From Acidobacteriota bacterium (GTDB lineage: Bacteria > Acidobacteriota > Vicinamibacteria > Vicinamibacterales > 2-12-FULL-66-21), in the NCBI GenBank assembly GCA_039933435.1, contig JBDTOB010000001.1, positions 1 to 41,624 on the forward strand: DNA of 41,624 bases, read 5' to 3'. A model generated the notes under the pieces. That model saw nothing but the letters and a program-made list of their open reading frames with translations, was not told where the DNA came from and did no database searches. The position numbers and the translations under genes were made by a program. Positions within the stretch are counted from its first letter, which is position 1, and each line of letters opens with the position of its first letter. Positions 1,677-29,242 of the stretch are shown piece by piece.

Positions 1677-2809
1677 ACGGACAGCCGCTGCGCATCGGGG
1701 TGGACGGCCGGGCGTTCGTGTCCCCGGCGGGCGGCGTCCGCCGCTACGTGCACGAGTTGTACGGCGCCATCGCCCGCGTCCATCCCGAAGTGCAGGTGAT
1801 CGCCCTCGGCGCGCCGGCAGGGAGCGGTCTACCGGCAGGCGTGCGGCGGCGCGGCGCCCTCCCCTTCCCGACCAATCTCGGGTGGATGGCGGCGTCGATG
1901 CCGCTGGCCGCGCGCGGCGCGGGCCTCGATGTCTACCATGCGCCCGCCTACACGGCGCCGCTCTGGGGCGTGCATCCCCAGGTGCTGACCATCCACGACG
2001 TCAGCTACGAGCGGCGGCCGGAGTGGAACGCCTACCGCAACGATCCGCTGCGGCGCTTCTTCTACCGCACGTCCGCACACGTCGCCGATCGGATCGTCAC
2101 CGACTCCGGGTTCAGCCGCGACGAGATCACCGCCGCCTACGGCATCCCCGCCACGCGCATCGACGTCGTCCCGCTCGCCGCGGGTGCGGGGTTCGCGCCA
2201 GGCGCCTTCGACGCCGGCGCCGTTCCGGCCGGCGTCACCCGTCCATATGCGTTGCACGTCGGCGATCTGCACGTGCGCCGCAACGTCGCGACGGCGCTGG
2301 CGGGCGTGCTGGCCGCGAGACGAAGCCTTGCCGCGCCGAAGCTGTCGCTCGTCTGCGCGGGCGTGGATCGGGGCACTGGAGAGGCGCTCGTCCGCCAGGC
2401 CGGCGATGCCGGCGATCCTGGGGCGGTTGCGCTCCTCGGACCCGTCTCCGAGCCGCTGCTGCTGAACCTCTATCGCGGGGCGATGCTCCTCGTCTATCCC
2501 TCACGCTACGAAGGGTTCGGCCTGCCGGTGCTCGAGGCCATGCAGTGCGGCGTGCCGGTGGCCGCGGCGCGCGCCGCGTCTCTGCCGGAGGTCGTCGGCG
2601 ACGCCGGCATCCTGCTCGGCGAGCAGGACGAGGACGCCTGGACGCGAACGCTGCTGGATATCGTTTCCACACCGGAGGTCCGCGCGACGCTGTCGGCGCA
2701 GTCGCTCGCCCGCGCCGCCGCGTTTTCCTGGGAGCGGACGGCGCGGGAAACGGTCCAGTCGTTCCGCAGGGCGGTAAACGATCACGCGGCGCAACGGAGC
2801 CGGCGGTGA
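1673..2809 (+). CDS. Glycosyltransferase, GT-B fold (GT4/GT1-type)
   Basis: GTG at 1673 overlaps the upstream stop (GTGA). The part of tracked ORF 965..2809 before 1673 is an Arg/Gly-rich alternative-frame shadow of the previous gene. Real product starts VNGQPLRIGVDGRAF. GT-B nucleotide-sugar motif: YEGFGLPVLEAMQCGVPVAAARAASLPEVVGDAG. Confidence 0.9.
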   Translation: MNGQPLRIGVDGRAFVSPAGGVRRYVHELYGAIARVHPEVQVIALGAPAGSGLPAGVRRRGALPFPTNLGWMAASMPLAARGAGLDVYHAPAYTAPLWGVHPQVLTIHDVSYERRPEWNAYRNDPLRRFFYRTSAHVADRIVTDSGFSRDEITAAYGIPATRIDVVPLAAGAGFAPGAFDAGAVPAGVTRPYALHVGDLHVRRNVATALAGVLAARRSLAAPKLSLVCAGVDRGTGEALVRQAGDAGDPGAVALLGPVSEPLLLNLYRGAMLLVYPSRYEGFGLPVLEAMQCGVPVAAARAASLPEVVGDAGILLGEQDEDAWTRTLLDIVSTPEVRATLSAQSLARAAAFSWERTARETVQSFRRAVNDHAAQRSRR

Positions 2810-3666
2810 GCCTCGAGGTCGCCGTCGTCATCGTCAACTTCAACGCCGGGGCACATCTGCGCGCCTGCGTGGACTCGGTCAGCGCCGATCTCGCCGGCAT
2901 GGCGTCGGCCATCCTCGTCGTCGACAACGCCTCCACCGACGGTAGCGCCGAGACCCTGGCGTCCGTTGCCGGCGTGGCGCTCCTTCGCAACGATTCCAAC
3001 CGCGGCTTCGGCGCGGCGGTCAACCAGGCGGCCGCGCAGACCGACGCCCGCTACCTCTGGCTGCTCAATCCTGACTGCCGCGTCGGGCCTGGCACCTTTG
3101 CACGCCTGTCCGAGACGATCGCGAAGCACCAGTCCTGCGCGATTGCCGCCGCCCGACTGCTCAATGCCGACGGCAGCGTGCAGGCCAGCGCGCGCGGCGA
3201 GCCAAGCGCCTGGACAGGCCTCTTCGGCCGGCACGGGCTGCTCACCAGACTGCTGCCGCGATCCGCGGCGGCACGGAGAAACCTGCCCGCGGCCGATCTC
3301 GTCGATGCCGGGGTCGAAAGCGCCGTCGTCGACTGGGTCATGGGCGCGTGCATGCTCGTCCGCCGCGACCGTTTCGACGAGGTCGGAGGCTTCGACGAGG
3401 GCTATTTCCTCTACTGGGAGGATGCCGACCTCTGCCGGAGGCTGCGCCTATGCGGCTACGAGACGCGCTTCGTCCCAGGCGCCCACGTGGCGCACGTCGG
3501 CGCCGTCAGCGCCGGCACACGCTCGCGGCTGGCGACCCGGGAATTCCACCGCAGCGCCTACCGCTACTACGCGACCCATGTCGTGACGGCGCCGTGGCAT
3601 CCAGCGCGGGGGCTCGCGCGGGTGGCGCTAACGCTGCGGTCGTGGTGGCGCGGCGGCTGGCGCTGA
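2806..3666 (+). CDS. Glycosyltransferase family 2 (WbbL-like rhamnosyltransferase-type GT-A)
   Basis: GTG at 2806 overlaps the upstream stop (GTGA). Motifs: VVIVNFNAG, VVDNASTDGS, NRGFGAAVN, LLNPD, GACMLVRR, YWEDADLCRRL. Confidence 0.9.
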   Translation: MSLEVAVVIVNFNAGAHLRACVDSVSADLAGMASAILVVDNASTDGSAETLASVAGVALLRNDSNRGFGAAVNQAAAQTDARYLWLLNPDCRVGPGTFARLSETIAKHQSCAIAAARLLNADGSVQASARGEPSAWTGLFGRHGLLTRLLPRSAAARRNLPAADLVDAGVESAVVDWVMGACMLVRRDRFDEVGGFDEGYFLYWEDADLCRRLRLCGYETRFVPGAHVAHVGAVSAGTRSRLATREFHRSAYRYYATHVVTAPWHPARGLARVALTLRSWWRGGWR

Positions 3667-4007
3667 ACACTTGAGCGGCTCTAACCAGACCATTACCAAC
3701 ACAAACAGCGTAGCCGTAGCGCCGTCGCACGCGGTTCGGATACACTCAGGGGACATGCTGCGGCCGCTCCGATGCTGAGGCTGCTTCCGCCGATGGGTGG
3801 AAAGGCGTTCGTCATTCCCGCGCACGGCGGTAGGTGCGGTCTCGCAGGCTCCGCCAGCAGGACTTGCCGTGCTCCCGATCATCCGCACAAACAACTACGA
3901 TCGCCTGGGGCCACTGCTCCGGGCTTGCGCCACTCTTCGGAGTTCGGTTCGCGGCCGACCCATCCACGCTTAGAGGCGATGTCCGTCTTTCCAATCTCCT
4001 TACGACC

Positions 4008-4868
4008 ATGACCAGCACACCTGACAGGACGTTTAGACCGAGAGGAGGGCCCGATACGCTTGTCGACTCCAACGCCGACACCGCCGGCGTCGTCGGTACC
4101 GTGCGGGCGGTCTTTCGATACCGCGAGTTGCTCAAGCACCTGGTATTGAAGGATCTGAAGCTGAAGTATCGGGGCTCGTGGCTTGGCTTCATCTGGTCGC
4201 TGGTCAACCCCCTGATGATGCTCGTGGTCTACCTCGTGGCGTTCAAGTACATCCTCCGCGTGCGCGGGGAAGGATTCGTCTTCCTGCTGCTGCTGGCCAT
4301 TCTCGCCTGGACGTTCTTCTCGAACTCGCTGAGCATGTCCGCTGGCGGCATTGTCGACAACGGTGCGCTGATCAAGACCGTCGCCTTTCCGAGAGCGGTG
4401 CTGCCCATCTCCTCGGTACTTTTCAACCTCGCTCAATATCTGCTGACGGCTGCGGTGTTCATTCCGCTGATGCTCCTGCTGCACCGGACCCCCCCAGCCG
4501 CTCCGATGCTCTTGTTTCCCGTCTTCCTGTTGCTGCAACTGGCGTTCACGGTCGGTATCGGGCTGGCGCTGGCCACCGGCACGACGTTCTTTCGAGACAT
4601 CCGCCATTTCCTCGAGATCGCACTGTCGGTGATGTTCTGGACGACTCCAATCGTCTACGACTTCCGCACCATTCCCGCGGCTTGGCAATGGCTGGTGCTG
4701 CTGAGCCCGCTGTCGAGCTTTGTCCTGGCCTATCAGCAAATCTTTTATTACCGGGAGTGGCCTGGGGCGGCGGTCAGCGCCATCGCGTTCTCCTATGCCG
4801 TGATCGCGCTGTCCGCCGGGGTGGTGCTGTTCTCGCGGTACGACCGGGAGTTCTCGGAGCAGCTCTGA
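4008..4868 (+). CDS. wzm: ABC-2 type polysaccharide exporter permease (Wzm/TagG/KpsM-like)
   Basis: ATG at 4008 is the first start after a non-coding-looking leader. N-terminal amphipathic LKDLKLKYRGSWLGFIWSLVNPL is followed by about six hydrophobic segments. The stop lies 2 nt before the ATPase start. Confidence 0.85.
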   Translation: MTSTPDRTFRPRGGPDTLVDSNADTAGVVGTVRAVFRYRELLKHLVLKDLKLKYRGSWLGFIWSLVNPLMMLVVYLVAFKYILRVRGEGFVFLLLLAILAWTFFSNSLSMSAGGIVDNGALIKTVAFPRAVLPISSVLFNLAQYLLTAAVFIPLMLLLHRTPPAAPMLLFPVFLLLQLAFTVGIGLALATGTTFFRDIRHFLEIALSVMFWTTPIVYDFRTIPAAWQWLVLLSPLSSFVLAYQQIFYYREWPGAAVSAIAFSYAVIALSAGVVLFSRYDREFSEQL

Positions 4869-4870
4869 CC

Positions 4871-6334
4871 ATGGCCACGTTCATCGATATTCAGAACATC
4901 TCGAAGCGGTTTTTGCTGCGGCGGAACCGCTCGGGCGACCTGAAGTCGCGCTTCCTGGGAATCTTCTTCCGGGAGCGTCGGGAGATCGTCGACGATCTGT
5001 GGGCACTGAAAGATGTGTCGCTGGACGTCGGCCAGGGGGAGTCCATCGGACTCGTCGGCCGCAATGGCTCAGGGAAGAGCACGCTGCTGCGCGTCGCTGC
5101 CGGCATGCATCGACCGACGTCGGGAAAGGTCCTGACCCGGCCTGGCGTGCGAATAACGACGCTCATCGAGTTGGGGGTGGGATTTCACCCGGAGCTGAGC
5201 GGGCAGGAGAATATCTACCTGAATGCCGCCATTCATGGCCTCTCACGGCGGCACATCGACGAGATCTACCGGGACGTGGTCGATTACGCCGAACTGAGTG
5301 ACTTCATGGATGTGCCCCTGAAGAACTATTCCTCCGGTATGCAGATGCGGCTGGGATTCGCGGTGGCGGCCCATCTCGACCCGGACGTGCTTCTGCTTGA
5401 CGAGATCTTCGCCGTGGGGGACGAGGACTTCCAGAAACGGTGCCTGAAGACCGTGCATCGGTTCCTGAACGCCGGCAAGACGATCCTCTTCGTGTCGCAT
5501 GCGGCCGCCTCCGTTCGTTCGATCTGCCGGCGGGTCTGTCTGCTCGACCACGGCCACCTCCTGTTCGACGGCGACGTCGATGCGGGCCTCGGGGCCTATC
5601 ACCGGCTGCTGGAGACGACGGCGGCCCCGGCCGCGGCGCCAGAGCCGGTGCCGGGTCTCACCGCAGCGGCGGTCGAGGAGAGCGGCCTGCGCGACTCGGC
5701 CGAACTGGACCGAGCCTGGCACCGGATGGCAGCGGGCGGTTTGTGGGACGAGGTCGGCACCTTGTATTTCGACTTCCTGCGGGCACAGGGCCTGCAGCCC
5801 CATCACTACCTGCTCGATGTCGGATGCGGCAGTTTTCGCCTCGGCGTTCATCTCGTGCCCTATCTGCAGCCGGGACGTTACATCGGTCTCGAGAGCAACG
5901 AGGATCTCGTCCGGGCGGGAGCCGAACTGGAACTGCCCCGTGTCGGCATCGAGCCGCGGGGCGTGCGTGTGGTGATCAGCAATTGCTTCGATCTGGCAGG
6001 CCTGCCGCTGATGGACTTCGCCATCGCCCAGTCAGCCTTCACACAGATGTCGTTGAATGGCATCGCGCAGGGCGTGGCGATGGTAGTCCGTAAACTGGCG
6101 CCTGGCGGACGCTTCTTCGCGGCCTACTACGAGAATCCGGACCCGGCCGCCGGCGACGCCATCCTGCATCCCGGGGGGATCAAGAGCCATCCCGATGCCG
6201 ATCCGTACCACGCGACCTTTGCCGTCCTGGCCGGCGTCTGCGCCGGCGTCGGTGCCCGCGCGGAGCGGGTCACCGGCTGGCAGCATCCGCAGGGTCAGCA
6301 GATGATGGTGATCACGCGCCGCTTGCAAGACTGA
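4871..6334 (+). CDS. wzt: Polysaccharide ABC exporter ATP-binding protein (Wzt-like) with C-terminal class I SAM-methyltransferase domain
   Basis: ATG at 4871 (MATFIDIQNISKRF). ABC motifs: Walker A GRNGSGKST, signature YSSGMQMRLGFA, Walker B VLLLDE, H-loop FVSHA. A Pro/Ala linker (AAPAAAPEPVPG) follows. MTase motifs: LLDVGCGSFRLG, IGLESNEDLV, DFAIAQSAF, LAPGGRFF. Confidence 0.85.
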   Translation: MATFIDIQNISKRFLLRRNRSGDLKSRFLGIFFRERREIVDDLWALKDVSLDVGQGESIGLVGRNGSGKSTLLRVAAGMHRPTSGKVLTRPGVRITTLIELGVGFHPELSGQENIYLNAAIHGLSRRHIDEIYRDVVDYAELSDFMDVPLKNYSSGMQMRLGFAVAAHLDPDVLLLDEIFAVGDEDFQKRCLKTVHRFLNAGKTILFVSHAAASVRSICRRVCLLDHGHLLFDGDVDAGLGAYHRLLETTAAPAAAPEPVPGLTAAAVEESGLRDSAELDRAWHRMAAGGLWDEVGTLYFDFLRAQGLQPHHYLLDVGCGSFRLGVHLVPYLQPGRYIGLESNEDLVRAGAELELPRVGIEPRGVRVVISNCFDLAGLPLMDFAIAQSAFTQMSLNGIAQGVAMVVRKLAPGGRFFAAYYENPDPAAGDAILHPGGIKSHPDADPYHATFAVLAGVCAGVGARAERVTGWQHPQGQQMMVITRRLQD

Positions 6335-6492
6335 GCGGCGATTTTCCCGCCCGTTTTCATCCCACATTTTTTGCCGCCGCTGCACCATTTCGGCGCATCG
6401 ACGACGCAGATCCCCGTAAAGCCGCGCTTTTCCGGGGGTCCGGCTCTTGCAAGGTTTGGCACCGTCCCCGGCCGAAGATAGGAAAACAGTTG

Positions 6493-9333
6493 ATGACGCC
6501 TTCTATCCGCTCTACCAGCCGCGTAGCCCTGCTCGCCTTCACGGTGGCCGTACCCGGGCTGGCAGAGGCGCAGGTGACCATCTCGTCCCCGGCCTCCAGC
6601 GCCGTACTTTCCGCAGGGCCTGACTTCGCCACCGACGTGCTCGGCGATCCGTGGGACATGTCGAACGCGGCCGACATCGCCGTCGATCCGGCCCAGAAAA
6701 AAGGCTGGGTGAGTCTGGCGTTCGCGGGGGGTCGGGTCGGTGGCACGCTCGCGGCGGTGAACGGTGCCGTCAACGGCAGCCACATCAATTTTCTCGAGCG
6801 CGCTTACTGGGGCATCATCAATCCGGGCCGGACCGGGGCGCGTTTTCCGATCGCGAGCGGCGTCTACACCAAGCTCACCTTTAAAATGAGCTCCACTGGC
6901 GACAACACCCAGCAGGCGCGTGTGTATTGGTTTCACAATGATCTGGGGGATCCGGCCGGGGACGCGTCAGGGGTCCGATATGTGAATGCCACGCCCAGCG
7001 CAGCCGTCCCCAACGGCGACAACATCTTCGAGGTCGATTTGACATCGTCTCTCCTTGCCGGCCAGCCATGGACCGCAGGGAACGTACGCGGATTCGCCAT
7101 CTATCCCAACAGCAGTGCGGTCGGCTACGACGTGCAGTTCGACTGGGTGAGGCTGACGACCGGCAACGGGCACCCGGCCAGTCCAATGCAGACGATTGCC
7201 TGGTCGGGCGGTACCGGCACGTCGAACCTCGACGTGATCGACAGCGGCGGCGCGGTCCTGCGCATCGCGACGGGCGTCACCTCTCCCTTCGCCTGGAATT
7301 ACGGCGGCCTGCCACCCGGCGCCTACACGCTGCGAATCACCCCGGCCGGAGGCGCCAGCGGGACGGTCGCTTTCCGCATCAATACGCCGCCGGTGCTGAG
7401 CGTCCTCGACCCGGACGCCTCCGGCGGTGAAGACTTCGCGACCACAGTGCTCGGCAACCCGTGGGACATGAACGACACTGCGGACTTCCGCTTCGACAAC
7501 GGCGCCACCATCGTCGACCACCTCACCTCGCGAGGCGTGAGCGGCGGCTTCTTCAACGGCATCAGCGACGGCGTCGCCACCGCGACCAGCCAGGACGGCA
7601 TCCCGGTCGGGGACCCCCAGGTATATCTGCTGTCCAACAACGGCGTCATCAACACCTCGCGCTACCGCTACCTGACGTTCGGGCTCCAGGTCGACGGCCC
7701 CTTCGACCTGCTGCGGGGGTCGGTCGCCCGAGTCTTCTGGGGATCCGCCACCGGCCCAGGCGCTCCCTATAATCTGACCGTCTCGAAGGACATCATCACC
7801 TGGGCGGGCCAGAATACCTACACGATCGATCTCGCCTCGCTCTCCGCGGCGCCGAACGGCGGACTCGAGGACGTCGGCTCGGCGGCGCCGTGGACCAGCG
7901 CCGCCGTCCGCCACTTCCGCATCGATCCGCACGAGTTTGCCGAGAACCATGGTTTTCACCTCGATTTCGTCAAGCTCGCGGCGATGGATGAAACCGCGGC
8001 GGGCAGCTTCACGATCCGGTTCGCGGCGTCCGATCCGGACAGCGATCCCCTGTCGCTGTCGCTCTACTACGACACCGACACCAATGCCGCGAATGGACGC
8101 ACGCTGATTGCCTCCGGGGTGGCGGCGGTCAGCGGCCAGTATTCCTGGAACACGGCAGGGGTCGCGCCCGGGGTCTACTACGTCTACGCCGAGGCGTCGG
8201 ACGGACGCAATGCCGTCGGCGTCTATTCGACCGGGCCGGTGCGAGTCACCGCTTACACCCCGCCGTCGGACCCGCTGATGAGTCTCGACTCGCCGCAGCC
8301 AAACGCGACGGTCGGCGGGTCGTTCCCGGTGGCGGGATGGGCCTTCGATCGGGCCGCCGTCTCGGGGACCGGCGTCGACTACGTACACGTCTACGCCTAT
8401 CCCAATCCGGGATCGGGACAGGCCCCGGTGTTCCTCGGCGCCGCGGCCTACGGGCAGGCGCGCGGCGACGTCGGGAACGCGTTCGGTTCGCGGTTTACCA
8501 ACACCGGATACAGCCTCCAAGTCAGCGGCCTCGCCCAAGGTCCCTACTACCTGGCGGTCTACGCGCACAGTACCGTCTCGGGCAACTACCAACTGCGAAC
8601 CGCCTCGCTGACGGTCGTCGGGCCGCTGATGTCAATCGACTACCCGGCGGCCGGAACGGCGAGCGCCCAGCCGCTGACGATCTCCGGTTGGGCACTCGAT
8701 GCCGCCGCGCCGTCTGGAACCGGCGTCGATACACTTCACGTGTGGGCCTACCCGAACCCGGGATCCGGCCAGGCCGCGATCTTTCTCGGCGTCGCCCAGT
8801 ACGGACAGAGCCGTCCGGACGTCGGCGCGGCGTACGGATCGCGCTTCACCAACTCCGGCTACTCCTTGCAGGTTCGGGGGCTGGCGCCGCAGACCTACCA
8901 GTTCGTGGTCTTCTCCCATAGCACCGCGACGGGAACCTTCAACACCGCCCGCACTGTCACGCTGGGGGTGCAGAACGCTCCCGCGATGGCGCTGGATGCC
9001 CCTGGACCCGGAACCGGTCCGCCGTCGTTCACGATCAGCGGCTGGGCCTTGGACCTTGCCGCCTCGACCGGTACCGGCGTCGATGCCGTACACGTCTACG
9101 CCTACAACAATCCCGGATCCGGGACGGCTCCGCAGTTTCTCGGCGTGGCGCAGTACGGCGGCGCCCGCGGAGACGTCGCCGCCGCCTTCGGAAGCTCGCA
9201 GTTCAACAACTCCGGCTACAACTTGCCGGTGACCGGGCTGTCGTCGGGCACCTACGACATCGTCGTCTACTCGCACAGCCGCGTTTCCAACGCCTTCGAC
9301 AACTGGCGGATGGTGCGGATCACCGTGCCCTAG
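6493..9333 (+). CDS. Secreted multidomain protein: two ~200-aa paralogous N-terminal domains, an Ig-like segment, three C-terminal ~117-aa 'GWA' modules
   Basis: ATG at 6493 lies 9 nt after AGGA; TTG 6490 is also in frame. Signal peptide: RVALLAFTVAVPGLAEA|QV. Internal repeats are described under repeat features and findings. The stop TAG (9331-9333) lies in the CTAG target of the IS630 element. Confidence 0.85.
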   Translation: MTPSIRSTSRVALLAFTVAVPGLAEAQVTISSPASSAVLSAGPDFATDVLGDPWDMSNAADIAVDPAQKKGWVSLAFAGGRVGGTLAAVNGAVNGSHINFLERAYWGIINPGRTGARFPIASGVYTKLTFKMSSTGDNTQQARVYWFHNDLGDPAGDASGVRYVNATPSAAVPNGDNIFEVDLTSSLLAGQPWTAGNVRGFAIYPNSSAVGYDVQFDWVRLTTGNGHPASPMQTIAWSGGTGTSNLDVIDSGGAVLRIATGVTSPFAWNYGGLPPGAYTLRITPAGGASGTVAFRINTPPVLSVLDPDASGGEDFATTVLGNPWDMNDTADFRFDNGATIVDHLTSRGVSGGFFNGISDGVATATSQDGIPVGDPQVYLLSNNGVINTSRYRYLTFGLQVDGPFDLLRGSVARVFWGSATGPGAPYNLTVSKDIITWAGQNTYTIDLASLSAAPNGGLEDVGSAAPWTSAAVRHFRIDPHEFAENHGFHLDFVKLAAMDETAAGSFTIRFAASDPDSDPLSLSLYYDTDTNAANGRTLIASGVAAVSGQYSWNTAGVAPGVYYVYAEASDGRNAVGVYSTGPVRVTAYTPPSDPLMSLDSPQPNATVGGSFPVAGWAFDRAAVSGTGVDYVHVYAYPNPGSGQAPVFLGAAAYGQARGDVGNAFGSRFTNTGYSLQVSGLAQGPYYLAVYAHSTVSGNYQLRTASLTVVGPLMSIDYPAAGTASAQPLTISGWALDAAAPSGTGVDTLHVWAYPNPGSGQAAIFLGVAQYGQSRPDVGAAYGSRFTNSGYSLQVRGLAPQTYQFVVFSHSTATGTFNTARTVTLGVQNAPAMALDAPGPGTGPPSFTISGWALDLAASTGTGVDAVHVYAYNNPGSGTAPQFLGVAQYGGARGDVAAAFGSSQFNNSGYNLPVTGLSSGTYDIVVYSHSRVSNAFDNWRMVRITVP
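8272..9330 (+). repeat. Three tandem coding repeats (~351-354 nt, ~117 aa each) forming the C-terminus of the 947-aa protein
   Basis: Units start near 8272, 8623 and 8977. Shared pattern: (I/V)(S/A)GWA(L/F)D..A.SGTGVD.(V/L)HV(Y/W)AYPNPGSG.A..FLG.A.YG..R.DV..A(F/Y)GS.F.NSGY.L.V.GL..G.Y..VV(Y/F)SHS. Confidence 0.9.
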
Positions 9334-10382
9334 TGGACCGTACTCGCTGAAGTACTACCGATTCGGTGCGCCGGGTTGCGATACGCCCAGCGGATCGGCT
9401 TCGGGGCTTTGTTGTAGCGATGGATGTGGCGACGGATCTTACGAGCCAAGTCGGCGACGGAGGTAAAGATGCCGCGCGCCAAGAGGTCTCGCTCGATCTT
9501 CGAAAACCAGAGTTCAATCTGGTTGAGCCAGGACGAATAGGTCGGCGTGAAATGCAGGTGCACGTTGGGATGCGCGATCAAGAAGGTGCGAACGGCTTGC
9601 GTCTTATGGGTCGAGAGGTTGTCCGCAATCACGTGAATCTCGCGCCGCTTCGGCTGGCTGGCGACGATGTCCCCCAGAAAGTCGACAAAGGCGGCACTGG
9701 TGTGCCGCGGCACTGTCTGGCCGAGCACTTCACCCGATTGTGTGTTGAGGCCGGCGAACAACGAGAGCGTGCCATGCCGGTAGTATTCGAACCCGTGCCG
9801 TTCGGCCCGACCCGGCGACAACGGCAACACCGGATCGAGTCGGTCGAGCGCCTGAATGGCGGTTTTCTCATCCACGGCGAAGACCGCCGCGTGGTCGGGC
9901 GGATTGACGTACAGCCCGATCACGTCGGCCGCCTTGGCTTCGAAGTCCGGATCATCCGACTGCATGTAGCGTGCGAAGCGGTGAGGCTGGAGTCCCGCGC
10001 GCTGCCACGTCTTCGCGACGAGGTTGTGATGAATCCCCAGCACGCGTCCCAGCTTCCGGGCACTCCAATGCGTGCTGCCGTCAGGAGGCGGTTGCTGCGT
10101 CTTGGCCAACACGCGGGCTTCCATCTTCGGGGTCAGCACCGTCGGCGGCTGGCCGCGATAGCGCGCCTGCAGCCCGTCGAGCCCGTCCGCCACGAAGCGT
10201 CGTCGCCACCGATTGATGTAATCGCGGTAGCACGGCACCGTGGCCTCGATGGTCGCGTACGTATCCCCATTCGCCAGCATCAGCACCACACGAGCCCGTC
10301 GCGCGTCTTCCGCCCGAATCTTGAGACTTCGCCCGCGGCGCTCCAGTTCCGTTCGTTCATCGATCGTCAATGTCAGGGCCAT
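9330..10382 (-). CDS. IS630-family (Tc1/mariner-like) DDE transposase
   Basis: 350 aa. N-terminal HTH region (ARRARVVLMLANGDTYATIEA). Catalytic residues in FAVDEKTAIQAL, HVIADNLSTHK and SSWLNQIELWFSKIERD. The stop codon TAG is the reverse complement of CTA at 9330-9332, so the ORF reads through the IR into the target site. Confidence 0.9.
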   Translation of the reverse strand: MALTLTIDERTELERRGRSLKIRAEDARRARVVLMLANGDTYATIEATVPCYRDYINRWRRRFVADGLDGLQARYRGQPPTVLTPKMEARVLAKTQQPPPDGSTHWSARKLGRVLGIHHNLVAKTWQRAGLQPHRFARYMQSDDPDFEAKAADVIGLYVNPPDHAAVFAVDEKTAIQALDRLDPVLPLSPGRAERHGFEYYRHGTLSLFAGLNTQSGEVLGQTVPRHTSAAFVDFLGDIVASQPKRREIHVIADNLSTHKTQAVRTFLIAHPNVHLHFTPTYSSWLNQIELWFSKIERDLLARGIFTSVADLARKIRRHIHRYNKAPKPIRWAYRNPAHRIGSTSASTVH

Positions 10383-10426
10383 TGGGCGCCAGAGTACAGT
10401 ACTGCTTCAGTCAGTACAAGCCACTA
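9331..10426 (-). mobile_element. IS630-family insertion sequence (element ~9333-10424) flanked by a TA duplication within a CTAG target
   Basis: Ends read CTA|GTGGACCGTACTCGCTGAAG.. on the left. The reverse complement of the right end reads CTA|GTGGCTTGTACTGACTGAAG.., with 15 of the first 20 IR positions identical by hand alignment. TA is present at 9331-9332 and 10425-10426. Size is ~1.09 kb with a single DDE transposase. IS630 is known to target CTAG and duplicate TA. Confidence 0.85.
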
Positions 10427-10443
10427 GTCTCTCTAGAGTGGCG

Positions 10444-10632: not shown

Positions 10633-11358
10633 ATGTCCAAACTCACCCTTGGTGACGCCTATCGTCGATTCGTCAAGTCGCTCGAGCAGACTCATGAACA
10701 CGAGAAGGCGATGCAGGTCGCCATCGGCGGCGAGTTCGACGCCGTCGGCGTGATTGAGCGCGAAATCCTCATCCATTACGGCCTGCCCCCCGAGGGGTTC
10801 GTAATCGACGTCGGCTGCGGCTCTGGACGACTGAGCAAGCCGCTCTCGGCCTACCTCACCGGTCCGTATCTCGGGATTGACGTCGTCCCGGAACTGGTCG
10901 CGCACGCCAGGGCTCTGGCCAGCCGCCCCGACTGGACGTTCGCAGTCGCGGCCGGACTGGAGATTCCCGCCGCCGCCGACTCTGCGGACATGGTCTGCTT
11001 CTTCTCGGTCTTCACCCACCTGCTTCACGAACAGTCCTACGTCTATCTGCGTGAAGCGAAGCGCGTGCTCAAGCCGGGCGGCAGGGCGGTGTTCTCGTTT
11101 CTCGAGTTCGCACAACCCTCGCACTGGAACATTTTCGAAAGTACGGTCGCCGACCGCGGCGCCGAGCATCTCAATGTATTCATCGGCCGTGACGCCATCC
11201 AGGCGTGGGCGGCCCACCTGCAGCTGGAAGTGGTGTCGATCGTCGGCGGCGACCAGCCTCAGACTCCGCTGCGGGAACCGCTGACGATGGAGGACGGGAC
11301 CGTGCAGACGGGATCCGCAACCCTCGGGCAGTCGCTATGTGTGCTCGGGAAACCGTAG
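10633..11358 (+). CDS. Class I SAM-dependent methyltransferase
   Basis: Motif I VIDVGCGSGRLSKPL, post-I LGIDVVPELV, DMVCFFSVFTHL, LKPGGRAVFSF. Motif spacing matches the Wzt C-terminal domain. Confidence 0.85.
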   Translation: MSKLTLGDAYRRFVKSLEQTHEHEKAMQVAIGGEFDAVGVIEREILIHYGLPPEGFVIDVGCGSGRLSKPLSAYLTGPYLGIDVVPELVAHARALASRPDWTFAVAAGLEIPAAADSADMVCFFSVFTHLLHEQSYVYLREAKRVLKPGGRAVFSFLEFAQPSHWNIFESTVADRGAEHLNVFIGRDAIQAWAAHLQLEVVSIVGGDQPQTPLREPLTMEDGTVQTGSATLGQSLCVLGKP

Positions 11359-11417: not shown

Positions 11418-14400
11418 ATGAAGACTGAGGCTTTTCAGCAGGACATCTATCAACGCTACAGCGTGCTCACGCGTCTGCTGGTCGCGGCCTTCCCGCCGCC
11501 GGCGGATGGCACTGTCGTCGACATCCTCGATATCGGCGCCGGGCCAGAGCGTCTGGCCGAACGGTTCCTGCCGCCCTATTTCCACATCACGCGGGCTGAC
11601 GTCGACACCGCGGGAGACACGGCGATCGTCCGCCTCGACCCCGGTCAACCGCTGCCCTTCGAACGCGACGCTTTTCCGGTAGTGATCGCGCTGGAGGTGC
11701 TCGAGCACGTCCCTGCCGCCGGACGGACCGCGCTCATCCACGAGTGTGCCCGGGTGGCTTCGAGCGTCGTCGTCCTCAGCTGTCCGGTGGCCTCACCGCT
11801 GACCAGCCGCGCCGAGGAAATCTTCCAGGCGCTCGCGACCCGCATCAGCGGCACCACACTGGCGTTTCTCGACGAACACAAGGCCGAGGGCCTCCCCGAC
11901 GCGGAGGCGATCCGCGCGGCACTCGAACAGCGGATGCCGCAGGTGTTCGACATCGCCAACTCCTCGTTGCCGGAGTGGCTGATTTACAACGCCATCGACC
12001 TGGCCTACGCCTGTGACTTCGGTGACGGCGAGGAGAAAGGCCGGTTCAACAGCGGCGTCAACGCCGCCGCGCCGCTGAGCGGGCGCGGGCCGCATTACCG
12101 GCGGTTTTTCGCCGGATGCGCCGACCAGTCGATGGGCGAGCGGCTGTCCGGCGCGCTGCGCGCGATTCCCTCGGACGGCGATCCCTTGGCCACCGCGGTC
12201 ACCATCGCCGAATCGCTGACCCTGTTTCGGGAGGACCTGCTCCGCAAGCATGCCGAGGGTCTGCGGCTCGCCGTCAAGGCCAAGGACCGGCACATCGACG
12301 CGCTGGACCAGGTGATCGTTCAGCTTCAGCGCGAAGGCCGGCACGATGCGAACGGGGATATCGGAGGGGACGTCGGTGGGGTTGCCGAACCCGCCGTTCC
12401 GGTGCCTCAGGCTCCCGATCGCACGTCCGTGCCGGCCAAAATGACGACGAAGCTGCGGGTGGCCAGGTCGCGCCTGCGAACGCTTCGGCTGGGCATCAGG
12501 CTGTCGAGCGACATCAAGGCGCTCGTCGCCCGCAGCCGCCTGTTCGACGCGGGGTACTACACCAACCGCTACCCGGACGTGGCCGCCAGCGGCATCGATC
12601 CGCTGGTGCACTATCTCGTGGTCGGGGGCGCGGAAGGACGCGGTCCCAACGCGATTTTCGACGACGTTTATTACGCGAGCCGCTCTCCGGACCTTCAGCC
12701 GTCTGGTCTGAACCCGCTCGTCCACTACCTGACCATCGGAGCGGCCGAGGGACGCGACCCGCATGCGCTTTTCGACTCGGCGTATTACGTCGCCTCCCAT
12801 CCGGAAGTGACGGCATCCGGGCTCACCCCGCTGGCGCACTATGTGATGCACGGCGCGGATCTTCGCTGGGATCCGAATCCGCTGTTCTGGACCGGCTTCT
12901 ATTTCGACACCTATCCGGATGTCGTCGGCTTGGGGATGAATCCGCTCGCGCATTACCTGCAGACCGGCGCTGGTGAGGGGCGGCAGCCAAGCCCCCTGTT
13001 CGACGTGCCGTTCTATCGGGCTCGAAATCCGGGGGTCGCGGCACAGGCCGATCCGTTACAGCACTACCTGGCGGCAGGCGGCGCCGAAGAACGCGACCCA
13101 CATCCGCTCTTTGACACGGCCTACTACCTCGCCCGCCATCCGGAAGTGAGGCAATCGGGTCACACCCCGCTGGCGCACTATGTGCTGCACGGCGCGCGGC
13201 TGCGATGGGACCCGACGCCGCTTTTCTGGACAGGGTTCTACGCCGACGCCTACCCGGACGTCTCTTCCTCAGGGATGAATCCGCTCGCGCACTACGTCCT
13301 CTCCGGGGCCGTGGAGGGACGTAATCCCAATCCCTTGTTCGAGGCCGCCTTTTATCGGAGCCGCAACGCCGACGTGGTTCCCCCGCACGTCGATCCGCTG
13401 CTCCATTACCTGGCGGAGGGTGCGGCGCTTGGGCGCGATCCACATCCGTTGTTCTCGACGCGCTACTACCTGTCGGCCAATCCTGACGTCGAGGCCGCGA
13501 ATCTCAACCCACTGGTTCACTATCTGCTGCACGGCGCAGGCGAAGGACGCCGCCCGAATCCGCTGTTCGATGCCGCCTATTACGGCCGCGGGCTCGACCT
13601 GCCGCCAGGTGCAAATCCGCTCGTCCACTATCTCGGCGAGGGGGCGAGGTCGGGACGGAACCCGCACCCGCTGTTCGACGCGGCTTTTTACCTGGCCAGC
13701 CACCCGGAGGCTGCGGTGGACCCGTCGGGAGCGCTGGCGCATTACCTCTCGACTGGCGCGGAGACGAAGTGGGATCCGCATCCGCTGTTTTCCAGCGAGT
13801 ACTACCTGTCGCGGAACCCGGACGTCGCCGCGGCGGGCGTCAACCCGCTAGTCCATTACGTACTGCACGGCGCCGCCGAGGGCCGCAGCCCGCACCCGTA
13901 TTTCGACGGGGCGTACTACCTGGCCTGCAATCCCGACGTCGCCCGCGACGGCGTCAACCCGTTGGTGCACTACCTGCAGACCGGCGCCGAGGAAGGCCGG
14001 AAGCCCTCCGCGCTGTTTGACACCCGCCACTACCTCGCCGAAAACCCGGACGTCGCCGCGGCGTCCGTCAATCCTCTCGCGCACTATGTCCTGCACGGAC
14101 GAGCCGAGGGGCGGACGCCGAACCGGCTCTTCGATCCGGCGTACTATCTCTCGACGAGCCGCGCCGGTGAGCCGGCCGCCTCGGACCCTCTCCGGCATTT
14201 CATCGATCATGGCGCCGCGGAAGGGCGCAACCCCTCTGCCGCTTTCGACACCTCCTTTTATCTTCGCCAGAATCCCGACGTCGCGGCCGCCGGCCTGAAT
14301 GCACTGGCGCATTACCTGGACCACGGCGAGGAGGAAGGGCGCCGGGCGGCGCCGTCGGCGGCCGGCGTGGCGGCCGAGCTTTCCGGGCGCTTCGTGCCGC

Positions 14401-17400
14401 CAGTGGGGCTGCTGCCCTGGTTCAACCCGCTGACCCTGGGGCTGGACCCCGGACTGGACCAGACACCGGCCCTCAATGTCCTGGTGCCCGGCCTCGCCAT
14501 GCAGCACATGTCAGGCGGCCCCAACACCGCGCTGCACATTGCCTATCGCCTCGCCGCCCTCGGCGTCCGCGTGCGGCTGATCTCCACAGACGCGCCGATG
14601 TCGGACCCCGAGCTGCTCTGGGGGCATCTCCTGCAGCTCATCGGCACTGACCGGCGGCTGCCCAACATCGAGTTCGCCGACGCGCACGACCGCAATCAGG
14701 TACTGGCCATCGGCCGCAACGATCTCTTCTTCGCGACCGCCTGGTGGACGGCGCAGATGGCCAAGTTCGCCATCGAGTTCACCCGCCACAAGCAGTTCGT
14801 GTACCTGGTCCAGGATTACGAGCCGCTCTTGCACGCCGCGTCGACTTCGCAGGCTCTCGCCGAGGAAACCTACTCGCTCGATTTCATCCCGATCGTCAAT
14901 TCACGCCTGCTCTTCGATTTCCTGACGGTCAACGGCATCGGACGCTTCGCCGAGCAGGAGTTCGCGGACACGGCTCTCGTGTTCGAGCCGGCAGTCGACC
15001 GTTCGCGCTTTTTCGTGGAGCCGGCCTCACCGGACCGGCCGCGCCGGTTGCTCTTCTACGCGCGTCCGACCACGGCGCTGCGCAATCTCTTCGAGTTGGG
15101 CGCGGCGGCGCTCATGGACGCTGCCGCGCGCGGGGTGTTCGACGCCGGGCCGTGGGAGCTGCTGGCCATGGGCGAGCCGATAGCGCCGGTGGCGGTTGGA
15201 CACGGCCTGGTGTTGACGCCGGCGCCGTGGCTGGATTTCGAGGGGTACGCGGCGCAGATGCGCCAGGCGGATGTCCTGCTCTCGCTGATGCTGTCACCGC
15301 ACCCCAGCTATCCACCGCTGGAGATGGCGTCCTGCGGCGGGGTCACCGTCACCACCAGTTTCGGATCCAAGACCGCCGCGCGGCTGGCTGTCATCTCCCC
15401 GAACATCCTCGGGGCGCCCCCGACTGTCGAAGGTGTCGCCGACGCCCTCATCGAGGCGATCGTCCGCAGCCGCACGGCGCGCGCGGATCCGCGCGCCGGA
15501 GCGCTCGACCTGCCGTCGACCTGGGACGAGAGCCTCGCCCCGATTCTGCCGGGCCTGCTGGCGGCGCTGCTCGAAGCCGCCGGGGCGCCCCGCGCCGGCC
15601 GCGTCTGGAACGCGCCGGCGCTGGGAACCAGTGACATCGCGTGTGGCTTCCAAACGTGGCCCGTCACCGCCTACGAACACTTTCGCATCGATCGCATGAG
15701 CCGCCGGCGGAGCGCCGCGCCGTCGGTTCGACCGGATCCGGGGCTGCTCTCGCTGATCACGACGGCCTGGAACACCGAGCCGCGGTTTCTGGAATATCTC
15801 GCCGCCAGCGTGTTTCAGCAGGACGGCGATCCGCCGTTCGAGTGGGTGATTATCGACAACGGCAGCGATCGTGACGACACCCGGCGGTGCCTGAGCGAGA
15901 TCGCGTCCCACCCGGCGGTCCGGTTGCACCGCATCGAGAGCAACGCCGGGATCGCCGGCGGCATGCGGCTGGCCCTGGAACGCGCGAGCGGCCGCTACGT
16001 GCTTCCAGTCGATTCCGACGACTATCTCTACCCCGACTGTTTGCGCCTGGTGGCGGCGGGCTTGGTCTCGGCTGGATTCCCGACGCTGCTCTACACAGAC
16101 GAGGACAAGCTCAGCGACGACGGCTGGCGCGATCCCTACTTCAAGCCCGACTGGGATCCCGTCCTCTTCGCCAATTCGTGTTACATCGCGCACCTCTGCG
16201 CGATCGATCGTGCGACGGCGCTGCACCTCGACTGCTACGCCGATGCCATCGCGGATGGCAGCCATGACTGGGACACGTTCACCCGCTTCACCGTCGCGGG
16301 CCACGCCCCTGTCCATCTGCCGGAAGTCCTCTACGGCTGGCGGATGCATGCCGGATCGACCGCTGCCAACATCGAGGCCAAGTCCTACATCGTCGCCTCG
16401 CAGCGGGGAGTGTTGACGAGGTTCCTGGACTCGCGGCGGGAGGCGGCGCGGTTCACCATCGAGCGCAGCCCGCTGTTTTCCGGCACCCCGGACTGGTGGA
16501 TCCGCAGGCTGCCGGTGGAGCCTCGCCCGATCACGACCGTAATCCTCCAGAAAACAGAGGAGACGGCGGCGGCCGGTGTCGAGATCGACGCCAGGATTCC
16601 ACACGATGTGAGAACGGTCACGGGTGAGGCGGCGCTCGACGAACTGCGAGCCATCGCGCTGGACTGCGCGGCGCGAGCGGGCCTGGTGCATCTGCTCGCC
16701 GATGATGTCGAGAGCGACAACCCGGAGTGGCCGTGGGAAGCCATGGGCATGATCGAGCTGTTCGAGGATACGGTCATGGTGGGCGGACGGATCCACGACG
16801 GCCGGCGGCTACTTTCGAGCGGCTTGCTGTTCGGGTTCGGGTCCGGCTGCGATGCCCCGGACCGTGGCCGCGACCTCAGGGATCCAGGGTATTTCGCGCA
16901 GGCCTTCAAGCCGCATTCGGTCAGCGCGGTGCCCGCCGATCATGCGATCGTCGAGCCCGGCTTCCTGGCTGCCGCGCTCTTCGAACTTCGCGATCTGCCG
17001 ATCTCGATCGCGGCTCTCGGTCCGTGGCTTGGCGCCGCGGCCCGGCGCGCCGGCAGCAGGGTTGCCTACTCGCCCTTCATCAGCGGCCGGGTTCCACGGG
17101 GACGTACGGATGGGTGGGACGAGCGCGAACTCTCCCTGTTTCGATCCGTCAATCATGACCTCATGCCCGAACGGCGGCTGCTCTCTCCGCACTTGGGGCT
17201 CACCCGCGAGACGGCGTTTCTGCCCGTCACGGAAGAACAGCGACGCGACGAGGAGGCGAACGCCGGCGCCTTGCGTCCGGAGTACCGGGAGGGGCTGGCC
17301 GGAACGCTGTGGGCGCGGCGTCGGACCTATGCGCTACCGGCGCGCGTGCCGTCTTTGTCGATCCTGACCACCCTCTACAGCGGAACCGACGCCCCGCTCT

Positions 17401-19222: not shown

Positions 19223-20622
19223 TTAGAGTCCCGGGACGTGGTGGAAATTCGGTAGGGCTCCTTCGCTAGACAAGCGAAGCGGCCATCGCGCATCTTTCCG
19301 TGAGTTCTCTCTGGCGGGGGACGAAACACACGGAGGTGTTGAGACGATGGCCAAACCAAGGATGGATCTGTCGGCGTTCGTTGGCAAGCTCCTCGAGGAG
19401 CAAGACGGGGATGTGCTGCGGGAGGGGATTCGGGTCCTGTCGCAAGCCCTGATGGAAAGCGAGGTGGCCGGGTTGATTGGCGCCGAGCGTCACGAACGGA
19501 CCGGCGACCGGACGGCGTACCGCAACGGGAGCCGGACACGGACGTGGGACACGCGCGTGGGCACGATCGAGTTGGCGATCCCGAAAGTCCGCCCGGGCAC
19601 GTATTTTCCTTCGCTGCTTCAGCCGCGACGCCGCGCGGAACACGCGTTGCTGGCGGTCGTGCAGGAAGCCTACGTGCATGGCGTCTCGACGCGGAAGGTC
19701 GACGATCTCGTGAAAGCGCTCGGTCTCGACGGCATCTCGAAGTCTGATGTCTCACGGATTTGCGGCGACCTCGATCCGATCGTCGCGGCCTTCCGGACCC
19801 GGGCGCTGACGGGCGAGCATCGGTATCTGTGGGTCGACGCGACCTACCACAAGGTTTGCGTCGATGGCCGGGTCATCAGCCAGGCCACCGTCGTGGCGAT
19901 CGGCATCACCAGCGAGGGCGACCGGCAGGTGCTCGGCATCGACGTCGGGCCGTCCGAGGACCGCGCCTTCTGGACGGCGTTCCTGCGCAGCCTGGTGAAG
20001 CGCGCCTGAAGGGTGTCCGCCTGGTGATCTCCGACGCCCATGAGGGACTGAAGGCCGCCATCAGCACCGTGCTGTCAGGGACGACATGGCAGCGCTGTCG
20101 CGTGCATTTCATGCGGAACCTCCTGGCCACGGTCCCCCACGGGGCCCGCGAGGCCATCGTCCGCACCATCTTCGCGCAGCCCGATCATGCCTCGCCGCTT
20201 GTGCAGCTCCGCAAGGTCGCAGACGGGCTCCGCAGCCGATTTGCGCGCGCCGCGGCACTCCTCGAAGAGGCCGCGGAAGACATTCTGGCTTGTCGTCATT
20301 TGCCGTTGGAGCATCAGCGCCAATTACACAGTACGAATCCACTGGAGCGTCTCAACAAGGAAATCAAGCGCCGATCCAACGTCATCGGCATCTTTCCGAA
20401 CTCGGCGGCGGTGATCCGGCTGGTCGGGGCGATCTTGCTCGAGCAGGACGATCAATGGGCCGTCGCTGAACGACGGTACTTCAGCGCGGAGTCGATGAAG
20501 CAGCTTACGACGCCGACGCTGTCCACGACGGCGCAGGAGATTCTAGCGGCGACTGCGTAGGCGAGCCGAACTCACGAATGCGTCTGCCGACTTTCCACCA
20601 CTTGACGGGACACTACCCCCCC
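19219..20622 (+). mobile_element. IS256-family insertion sequence (~1.4 kb)
   Basis: Imperfect terminal inverted repeats. Left (19224-19258): TAGAGTCCCGGGACGTGGTGGAAATTCGGTAGGGC. Reverse complement of 20581-20615: TAGTGTCCCGTCAAGTGGTGGAAAGTCGGCAGACG. 26 of the first 32 positions are identical by hand alignment. Outer boundaries are uncertain by a few nt. The element encloses an IS256-type transposase. Confidence 0.8.
19347..20560 (+). pseudogene. IS256-family transposase, disrupted by a 1-nt frameshift near 20003-20006
   Basis: ORF 19347..20009 ends ..FWTAFLRSLVKRA*. The protein continues in the -1 frame as LKGVRLVISDAHEGLKAAI..WQRCRVHFMRN..TNPLERLNKEIKRR. Intact family members read ..LVKRGLKGV.. 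The sequence cgcgcctgaagg, versus expected cgcggcctgaagg, implies loss of one G. DDE residues lie in WVDATY, VISDAH and NPLERLN. Confidence 0.8.
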
Positions 20623-24341: not shown

Positions 24342-25253
24342 TCAGGCTTCACGGCCTCGCTCGGTGCGCCACCACTCAATCGTTTCCGCGAGCCCACGGT
24401 CGAGCGACACCGCCGGGTGCCAGCCGACTTCGTCGCGGATCCTGGTAACGTCCGCGGTCAGCCGCGGCGGATCGTGCGGCGGCGGCGGGCGGGCGCCCAG
24501 CCGGATCAACGATTCGGCCTGCAGCAACTGTCCGATGCGGCGCACCACGTCGGCCACAGCGGCCGGGCTGCCGGAGGCGATGTTGACCGGCCCTTCCACA
24601 TCGCTTGCAAGGATGGCGGCGAAGGCGTCGGCGACGTCCTGGACATGCAGGAAATCCCGCACCTGGGTGCCCGCCGAGCACTGCGCCTCGCGCCCCGCCA
24701 GCAGCGCCAGAATCACCGACGGCACCAGACGGTCCGGATGCTCCAAGGGGCCGTAGAGATGGAAGACCCGACCCCACGACGCCGACAGACGGCCGCGCGC
24801 AAATCCCTCGAGCACCGCGTGAAAAGCGTGCTTGGCGCTGCCGTAGAGCGTCCCCGGGCGAAGCCGGGTCGTCCGCTCATCGCAATCATCCGCTGCCACC
24901 GCATACTCGGCGCACGAGCCGGCGCCGACGAAGCGCTCACCGCCCTGGTCGGCAAACGCCCGCAGCAGCTCGATGCTCACCTGCACCCAGGAGAGGTTCT
25001 GCGGTGACGTCCAGAACTCCCCCGGCGTCGCGCACCACGCCAGGTGCAGGAGATGCGTCGGCCGGACGGTCTCGATCAGCCGGGCGCCAGCTCCCGGCAC
25101 CAGCAGATCGGCCTGGTGCCACTCGGCCACGCCGGCCGCCGCCGGCCGCGCCCGGGAGCTGACCGCATGCACCTCGAACGGCAGGGCGCCGAGCGGCCGC
25201 AGGCAATGGCGTCCGATGAAGCCGCTCGCGCCCGTCAGCAGCACCCGCGTCAT
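24342..25253 (-). CDS. NAD(P)-dependent extended SDR (NDP-sugar epimerase/reductase); probable NDP-4-ketohexose reductase
   Basis: ATG overlaps the upstream stop (ATGA). Motifs: VLLTGASGFIGRH and catalytic YGSAK. The operon position after the epimerase suggests the reductase role. Confidence 0.8.
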   Translation of the reverse strand: MTRVLLTGASGFIGRHCLRPLGALPFEVHAVSSRARPAAAGVAEWHQADLLVPGAGARLIETVRPTHLLHLAWCATPGEFWTSPQNLSWVQVSIELLRAFADQGGERFVGAGSCAEYAVAADDCDERTTRLRPGTLYGSAKHAFHAVLEGFARGRLSASWGRVFHLYGPLEHPDRLVPSVILALLAGREAQCSAGTQVRDFLHVQDVADAFAAILASDVEGPVNIASGSPAAVADVVRRIGQLLQAESLIRLGARPPPPHDPPRLTADVTRIRDEVGWHPAVSLDRGLAETIEWWRTERGREA

Positions 25254-25780: not shown

Positions 25781-25788
25781 GCCCCGGC

Positions 25789-28004: not shown

Positions 28005-28012
28005 CGGCTCCG

Positions 28013-29241: not shown

Positions 29242-29242
29242 A

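Follow-up and report, generated by a model that had tools for sequence, protein, structure and literature searches.

A Wzt-type exporter ATPase with a predicted C-terminal methyltransferase domain in surface-glycan loci of Acidobacteriota

The wzt-MTase gene and its product

The stretch of DNA analysed here, called the window throughout, comprises 41,624 nucleotides of contig JBDTOB010000001.1 (assembly GCA_039933435.1) from an Acidobacteriota bacterium of the order Vicinamibacterales. One of its genes, hereafter wzt-MTase, codes for the ATPase of a Wzt-type ATP-binding cassette (ABC) exporter joined to a predicted S-adenosyl methionine (SAM)-dependent methyltransferase (MTase). The gene lies on the plus strand at 4871-6334 and starts 3 nucleotides past the stop codon of the gene coding for Wzm, its ABC-2 permease partner. 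Its frame is open from the ATG at 4871 to the TGA at 6332-6334, a continuous open reading frame (ORF) of 487 codons plus stop, with neither an internal stop codon nor a frameshift. No such interruption was found between positions 5600 and 5700, where the initial annotation of this DNA had considered a hidden split into two genes. The same ORF is also intact in an independent contig (L085) obtained from a sequencing run unrelated to that of the window; the two are collinear, with a nucleotide identity of about 92%, and L085 encodes the same uninterrupted protein with 96% identity (P0270).

The 487-amino acid product consists of (i) a Wzt nucleotide-binding domain (NBD; residues 1-245, positions 4871-5605), (ii) a flexible linker rich in proline and alanine (residues 246-280, positions 5606-5710; TTAAPAAAPEPVPGLTAAAVEESGLRDSAEL), recognised by its low predicted local distance difference test score (pLDDT), and (iii) a class I SAM-dependent MTase domain (residues 281-487, positions 5711-6331), assigned from an AlphaFold2 model, Foldseek and homologues. 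The initial annotation had proposed this architecture of ABC ATPase, linker and class I MTase in one ORF, and it proved correct; the four motifs quoted at the time were all found, namely LLDVGCGSFRLG (residues 314-325), IGLESNEDLV, DFAIAQSAF and LAPGGRFF. The beginning of the MTase, which had been placed at 5690, has to be shifted, the folded domain starting instead at about nucleotide 5711 with an AWHR motif. Alignment and conservation locate motif I, the SAM-binding glycine-rich loop, at LLDVGCG (residues 314-320, positions 5810-5830), and conservation likewise marks G339-L340-E341 (positions 5885-5893) as the end of strand beta-2 with the acidic residue of motif II.

The NBD is recognised by the Pfam model ABC_tran (E 1.5e-21), whose cut-off of 25 bits it exceeds with 77.9 bits, and its translation shows the motifs of Walker A (GRNGSGKST), the signature (YSSGMQMRL) and Walker B (LLLDE). 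A sequence search of the PDB ranked Wzt of Aquifex aeolicus first (6amx, 8dku, 6m96 and 7k2t; E about 1e-57), followed by TagH/TarH and mycobacterial RfbE. The nearest NCBIfam models were those of TagH and of galactan Wzt/RfbE (E 1e-54 to 1e-46), the scores staying under the equivalog cut-offs (185, 170 and 158 bits versus 538, 320 and 400 for TagH PRK13545/13546 and galactan Wzt/RfbE). On these scores the NBD is a member of the broad Wzt/TagH family and not an equivalog of TagH or of galactan Wzt/RfbE. Its partner Wzm (4008-4868, plus strand) matches the Pfam family ABC2_membrane (E 2.2e-17). The start of Wzm is most likely at 4008, which corresponds to M59 of the ORF 3834-4868, because the orthologous 286-amino acid gene call in L085 maps there.

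As had been supposed initially by comparison with E. coli O8/O9a and Klebsiella O12, the MTase sits where their Wzt proteins have a Wzt_C domain, and Wzt of A. aeolicus has its Wzt_C in this position too. Wzt_C (PF14524) gave no match in Wzt-MTase even at E 0.1, and the model does detect the module when it is present, as in a relative of the protein (P0137). Because this defining domain is absent, Wzt-MTase falls outside the family of cap-reading Wzt proteins with Wzt_C.

The C-terminal domain has a predicted methyltransferase fold

A search with residues 241-487 against 5.8 billion protein clusters (E up to 0.001) returned 121 proteins, 114 of them with E values of 1e-25 or lower. The majority stand alone, are 208-250 amino acids long and show 35-47% identity as well as Pfam MTase matches, and wherever a source names them, the name is SAM-dependent methyltransferase. 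The AlphaFold2 model of the domain (73 sequences) has a mean pLDDT of 90.4, a predicted template modelling score (pTM) of 0.84 and the alternating beta/alpha order of a Rossmann fold. Foldseek against the PDB gave 1603 matches (E up to 0.001), and class I SAM-MTases make up nearly all of the best 50 of the 1603, with CypM, CcbJ, TylM1, CalS10, DesVI, DnrK and ToxA at the top (E about 1e-12, template modelling score about 0.55). Motif I aligns to that of NovO and YcgJ, as do the acidic motifs E341 and D374. Modelling thus bore out the MTase fold that the initial annotation had predicted, and because the homologues, the AlphaFold2 model and the Foldseek matches agree, the assignment to the class I SAM-MTases can be considered solid.

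The resemblance is one of superfamily and not to any characterised enzyme. NCBIfam gave a single match to the C-terminal domain (MpqE, 13.5 bits), and sequence and profile searches of the PDB found only generic MTases (NovO, YcgJ, MitM and Rv0560c). A supposed likeness to rhizobial NoeI was dropped after tblastn of the PLSDB plasmids, which yielded seven weak matches, five annotated just as methyltransferase and two unannotated, none of them NoeI.

In an AlphaFold model of the full-length protein (123-sequence alignment; mean pLDDT 90.1, pTM 0.58), the pLDDT of the NBD is mostly above 90 and the only low-confidence stretch is the linker (residues 246-280, pLDDT 47-58, with residues 252-259 below 50). 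The picture is that of two rigid domains joined by a flexible tether, and no fixed interface between them is predicted.

Conservation of the SAM-binding site

Key positions were tabulated in an alignment of 39 fused proteins, 187 stand-alone homologues and four degenerate fusions. Among the fused proteins, the acid of motif I (position 316) is D or E in 39/39, G318 is kept in 39/39 and G320 in 38/39; the same three positions are kept in 183-187 of the 187 stand-alone enzymes. The acid of motif II (E341) is E or D in every fused and every stand-alone sequence (39/39 and 187/187). Further conserved positions of the fused proteins are E354 (38/39), D374 of motif III (D or E in 36/39), D382 (34/39), G413 (39/39) and, at the N-terminal end of the domain, H284 and R285 (34/39 and 35/39). 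SAM-binding and family-specific residues are thus conserved at the same rates in fused and stand-alone proteins, and an alignment of 123 full-length fusions gave the same picture. A comparison of the window with L085 gave the following ratios of nonsynonymous to synonymous substitution rates (dN/dS): NBD, 0.114; linker, 0.131; MTase domain, 0.157. The counts are small, yet they clearly indicate purifying selection. Because its motifs are conserved and it is under purifying selection, the MTase domain behaves like a working enzyme, and from its sequence it is apparently catalytically competent. The suggestion of the initial annotation that a dead MTase fold might have been reused as a cap reader is therefore unsupported for the window protein, which keeps its SAM motifs at a dN/dS of 0.157.

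The four degenerate fusions (P0116, P0118, P0119 and P0120, from loci L083 and L084) form a subclade that has lost one helix and strand beta-3 through the deletion of about 29 residues; its glycine loop is gone as well, motif I reading EIGMGGG, EVSCGCG or EVSSGAS. Their NBDs share 86-96% identity and their C-terminal domains 47-78%. Because the C-terminal domain diverges much faster than the NBD, it looks like a decaying appendage in this subclade rather than a conserved reader, and for the same reason the subclade was rejected as evidence for a pseudo-enzyme with a reading function.

Distribution of the fusion

A search with the full-length protein, in which clusters were defined at 90% identity, recovered full-length fusions (468-506 amino acids, 97-100% coverage, E 1e-159 or better) in at least 120 clusters, a lower bound. 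Many of these carry the automatic JGI name 'ABC-type polysaccharide/polyol phosphate transport system ATPase subunit/SAM-dependent methyltransferase'. When GTDB genomes, one for each species, were searched with an MTase-domain profile, 80 loci were detected, and in about 30 of them an ABC domain lies directly upstream. Both domains are in one frame without a stop, separated by a linker of 14-35 amino acids, in 22 of these approximately 30 loci; the remaining ones are cut by contig ends or by gene-splitting frameshifts, mostly in contigs of the MFD series of metagenome-assembled genomes (MAGs). Every fused locus belongs to a MAG of the Acidobacteriota, in many cases labelled Vicinamibacteria or Vicinamibacterales. 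The database search that had been proposed for the Wzt-MTase architecture and its taxonomic spread thus extends it to at least 120 clusters and to about 30 species of Acidobacteriota. The fusion is a lineage-wide feature and not a peculiarity of the window.

The WecA-like and GT2 glycosyltransferase (GT) genes of the window are 76-89% identical to those of four related loci (L017, L018, L023 and L031), versus about 59% (NBD) and about 45% (MTase) for Wzt-MTase itself. The identities of the flanking genes make it very probable that the window belongs to the same group as these loci. Furthermore, the Wzm gene lies upstream of the WecA-like gene in L017, L023 and L031 and directly upstream of wzt in the window; L018 is too short to place Wzm relative to WecA. 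This pattern resembles a serotype-style, cassette-like replacement of the transporter genes between the window and the four loci.

In the full-text literature, searched apart from the census of Mann, Kimber and Whitfield 2019 (Glycobiology), no description of a Wzt-methyltransferase fusion was found. Automated annotations do show the architecture, and it is common in soil metagenomes; as a type of exporter it appears to be uncharacterised.

Fusion partners of the methyltransferase family

Members of the MTase family share the motifs HR..GG.W, LDVGCG, Y.G.D/E, EL, FD, PGGRF, DPYH and HPRG. When 30 long representatives (more than 380 amino acids) were scanned for fused domains, sulfotransferases were found in six, GT2 in four and ABC_tran in five. 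One of the five is P0137, a protein of 674 amino acids (L082, 7433-9457) with the domain order ABC_tran, Wzt_C, MTase (E 5.5e-47 for the MTase). Its sequence shows that a MTase of this family can accompany a putative carbohydrate-binding module (CBM) instead of replacing it. The cluster of P0137 also holds Wzm, GTs, further MTases, an oligosaccharyltransferase of the STT3/PglB type and a radical-SAM/B12 enzyme; it may serve an ABC-exported, methyl-capped glycan bound for protein glycosylation. Five or six stand-alone members of the family lie beside wzm/wzt genes. Because of these fusion partners and of the wzm/wzt neighbourhood, the evidence points to a glycan as the acceptor of the methyl group.

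The glycan locus around wzt-MTase

By its gene content, the window is predicted to hold an ABC-transporter-dependent surface-glycan locus making a methylated glycan. All genes described below are on the plus strand unless stated otherwise. A WecA-like polyprenyl-phosphate N-acetylhexosamine (HexNAc)-1-phosphate transferase with a CoA_binding_3 domain is encoded at 12-1676, its 5' end cut by the end of the contig (Glycos_transf_4, E 1e-26; CoA_binding_3, E 3e-14). It is followed by a GT4-type glycosyltransferase at 1673-2809 (92% identity to the L085 GT4 product by tblastn, over 1673-2794) and a GT2 glycosyltransferase at 2806-3666 (Glycos_transf_2, E 1.5e-18, and L085 gene calls). The WecA-like gene is syntenic with Wzm and Wzt-MTase across most related loci, and the genes of the conserved core come in the order WecA-like gene with CoA_binding_3, Wzm, Wzt-MTase and multidomain GT1/GT2 glycosyltransferases. 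An initiator combining the WecA/MraY-type Glycos_transf_4 domain with CoA_binding_3 is itself conserved across the related loci and also occurs in L010 (2527-4320); CoA_binding_3 is usually carried by phosphoglycosyl transferases of the WbaP/PglC type.

Downstream of wzt-MTase, positions 6490-9333 encode a 947-amino acid protein with immunoglobulin (Ig)-like repeats (faint Pfam matches to Kre9_KNH and Big_7). Its homologues adjoin the module of WecA, Wzm and Wzt-MTase in many loci of Vicinamibacteria, which makes it a possible component of this surface-glycan system. A stand-alone class I MTase follows at 10633-11358 (Methyltransf_11, E 2.9e-18); with 29% identity over 156 amino acids (E 1e-10), it is, at sequence level, a distant homologue of the C-terminal domain of Wzt-MTase. 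Between the Ig-like and the stand-alone MTase genes lies an insertion sequence (IS) element of the IS630 family (9334-10432; DDE_3 and helix-turn-helix domains), with its transposase ORF on the minus strand at 9330-10382. Its insertion is recent, because the 92%-identical L085 is without this 1.1-kb segment.

The next gene (11418-18836) codes for a multidomain protein of 2472 amino acids with WsaF_N, WsaF_C and two Glycos_transf_2 modules. Ahead of the GT modules, its N-terminus shows MTase-like motifs and a weak match to Methyltransf_11 at the cut-off (E 5e-4, residues 37-114). We consider the protein a probable polymerase and a possible terminator. At least ten pattern-matched repeats of 38 amino acids ('NPLxHYxxxGxxEGRxPxPLF', residues 394-960), which correspond to no Pfam family, could serve as a ruler or spacer. 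A truncated transposase of the IS256 type (19227-20009; Transposase_mut, profile positions 20-221 of 379) is the second remnant of a mobile element within the glycan locus.

On the minus strand, a block at 24342-29526 contains genes for nucleotide diphosphate (NDP)-sugar synthesis: a nucleotidyltransferase (NTP transferase), two genes of the 4,6-dehydratase/epimerase type and a C-methyltransferase of 626 amino acids (25789-27669; Methyltransf_13/14, TylC3-like). It suggests that a C-methyl branched or deoxy sugar is part of the glycan. At least one start codon in the block is mis-assigned, because the ORFs at 25789-27669 and 27012-28268 overlap as listed. Further GT2 proteins are present in the window after Wzt-MTase. 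A 1334-amino acid protein with four GT2 stretches (31492-35496) precedes a 720-amino acid GT2 protein (35503-37665), and polypeptides with multiple GT domains, counting the 2472-amino acid protein, are unusually concentrated in this locus.

Proposed function and alternative explanations

The reading we favour, to which we give a probability of roughly 60%, is that Wzt-MTase combines a Wzt NBD, a flexible tether of about 35 residues and a catalytically competent SAM-MTase that would methylate the lipid-linked glycan at the exporter. At the cytoplasmic face of the membrane, the WecA-like initiator together with the adjacent glycosyltransferases would assemble the glycan on undecaprenyl-diphosphate (Und-PP). 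Each Wzm2Wzt2 complex would keep two MTase domains at the entrance of its channel, and these would transfer methyl groups from SAM to the lipid-linked glycan. The most parsimonious target would be the non-reducing terminal sugar, whose methylation would end elongation and label the chain at the very place where it is exported; the acceptor site of the MTase could then also recruit the chain. Alternatively, under the same model, internal residues may be methylated while the chain feeds into the channel. We infer SAM-dependent catalysis, a glycan acceptor, a cap as target and coupling to export; it is the fusion itself that suggests that the methylation is a cap, or that it takes place at the transporter. 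In a more specific and more tentative version, which we regard as possible without favouring it, the tethered MTase would act as a 'catalytic CBM', terminator and recognition module in one, that captures the end of the chain, caps it with a methyl group and hands it to Wzm/Wzt.

Several observations weigh against the proposed methylation at the exporter. In the window protein, the C-terminal domain scores below the gathering cut-offs of the Pfam families Methyltransf_12/25/11 (E 0.002-0.007; 17-20 bits versus 21-30). Because homologues at 40-47% identity match the same models with E values down to 9e-27, this score therefore reflects the divergence of the window sequence and not a missing domain. 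PDB sequence and profile searches and Foldseek gave no solved structure nearer than generic small-molecule or NDP-sugar MTases, and no defined interface for docking of the MTase on the NBD was found in the full-length model (pTM 0.58). The cluster has other MTases, i.e., the stand-alone enzyme (10633-11358), the N-terminus of the 2472-amino acid protein and the C-methyltransferase (25789-27669), and extra MTase genes are present in most related loci. A cap role assigned to the Wzt domain by elimination, as the sole MTase, was therefore rejected, and a role in capping has to be argued on other grounds. The decay of the C-terminal domain in the degenerate subclade, next to NBDs still 86-96% identical, shows, as far as sequences can tell, that transport would have no strict need of the MTase domain. 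Finally, the N-terminal WHR motif is lost in L018, L023 and L031, which are close relatives by their flanking genes.

A first alternative, which we judge unlikely, is that the MTase is an ordinary enzyme of the pathway, acting on an NDP-sugar precursor or on the glycan at any place of the membrane, that was joined to the neighbouring wzt gene just for co-expression or stoichiometry, with no mechanistic coupling to export or termination. Members of the family are mostly stand-alone, the best structural matches include the NDP-sugar N-methyltransferases TylM1, DesVI, CalS10 and KedS8, and both the flexible linker without a predicted fixed interface and the ability of the domain to decay while the NBD is kept would fit such a fusion. 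Against it, the fusion is stable over a class-level lineage, in at least 120 clusters, with a short linker and in the same order, and members of the family are repeatedly found joined to enzymes acting on polymers and to a Wzt that bears a CBM. The divergence of wzt-MTase (about 59% and 45% identity between flanks at 76-89%) is moreover what would be expected of a serotype-specific component.

It is less probable still that the domain is a substrate reader, i.e., a MTase fold that replaces the CBM of Wzt_C and uses its acceptor pocket mainly to bind the (methylated) terminus of the chain, turning over little or not at all. Its position in place of the undetected Wzt_C, the fact that the 2472-amino acid protein, with its MTase-like N-terminus, is a further candidate for the terminator in the cluster, and the retention of the domain in relatives with a degenerate motif I and the deletion of about 29 residues are in favour of such a reader. 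The SAM-site residues are, however, all kept in the window protein and in 34-39 of the 39 fused proteins, as in the stand-alone enzymes, and the MTase domain has a low dN/dS. The unequal identities of C-terminal domains and NBDs in the degenerate subclade fit decay, and P0137 retains a real Wzt_C beside its MTase, which means that the two are not equivalent.

Lastly, an assembly or sequencing error merging a wzt and a methyltransferase gene at 5600-5700 was rejected as practically negligible: it has no direct support beyond the frameshifts in some long-read MAG relatives, which show that such errors occur, but those errors split the gene instead of fusing it, whereas the frame is open here and the same architecture is found in L085, in genome loci of which 22 are intact and in at least 120 protein clusters.

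ABC-dependent glycan export has two prototypes: either the chain is uncapped and exported with a plain Wzt, or it is capped by a separate terminator and recognised at its cap by a CBM on Wzt. A transporter carrying its own modifying enzyme would be a third arrangement, and the fusion offers a handle on the spatial coordination of termination, modification and export. If the 'catalytic CBM' version holds true, the transporter would control chain length and license export in a single step; this third way of coupling would be widespread in soil Acidobacteriota and would dispense with a separate coiled-coil terminator and lectin. Vicinamibacteria-type Acidobacteriota have a conserved surface-glycan module of which the fusion is characteristic; they are abundant and rarely cultured soil bacteria whose envelope glycans have, to our knowledge, hardly been studied. 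Should the coupling be real, the NBD-MTase pair may be used in glycoengineering for defined methyl caps; if the fusion is one of convenience, it still annotates hundreds of metagenomic proteins that are labelled only as ABC ATPases.

Comparison with known systems

[quoted passage not shown] Methyl caps that terminate the chain and license its export are established in E. coli O8 and A. aeolicus (PMC9445017, PMC3482155). The extended Wzt proteins of E. coli O8/O9a, K. pneumoniae O12 and A. aeolicus resemble Wzt-MTase in the family of their NBD and in their Wzm partner. They also carry their extra domain C-terminal to the hinge helix of the NBD, on a linker, and are encoded in a similar gene cluster with a polyprenyl-phosphate HexNAc-1-phosphate transferase and multidomain GTs. 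They differ in the nature of the domain, which is a jelly-roll CBM (a lectin) in the extended Wzt proteins and a Rossmann-fold SAM-MTase, predicted to be an enzyme, in the window.

The MTase of WbdD (a MTase in E. coli O8 and a kinase-MTase in O9a) has the class I fold that is predicted for the C-terminal domain of Wzt-MTase. The chemistry proposed here is that of enzymes of the WbdD type, namely SAM-dependent methyl transfer to the non-reducing end of a glycan carried on Und-PP, within a pathway that depends on an ABC transporter. Unlike WbdD, however, Wzt-MTase is without a coiled-coil ruler, a kinase module and a membrane-anchoring helix and ends at residue 487, after the MTase core; Pfam gave no kinase match on Wzt-MTase, and WbdD is absent from its sequence matches in the PDB. 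Moreover, the enzyme is joined to the exporter in Wzt-MTase and to the polymerase in systems of the WbdD type. ORF6 of K. pneumoniae O7 combines an N-terminal MTase-kinase, a coiled coil and GT modules (PMC11231755), and the feature of the window most like WbdD and this ORF6 is the N-terminus of the 2472-amino acid protein, with its layout of MTase plus GT, rather than Wzt. Wzt-MTase is thus not a terminator of the WbdD type.

The stand-alone MTases of about 210-250 amino acids, such as P0014, P0022 from Burkholderiales and P0106 from Solicola gregarius (35-47% identity along the entire domain, E 1e-30 to 1e-62), share the family motifs with the C-terminal domain of Wzt-MTase and have no fusion to an ABC ATPase. 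P0137, in contrast, has a MTase of the same family at the C-terminal end of a Wzt, but with the CBM between NBD and MTase, unlike the window protein. Its cluster also differs from the window by its oligosaccharyltransferase of the STT3/PglB type, and P0137 is the single such representative found.

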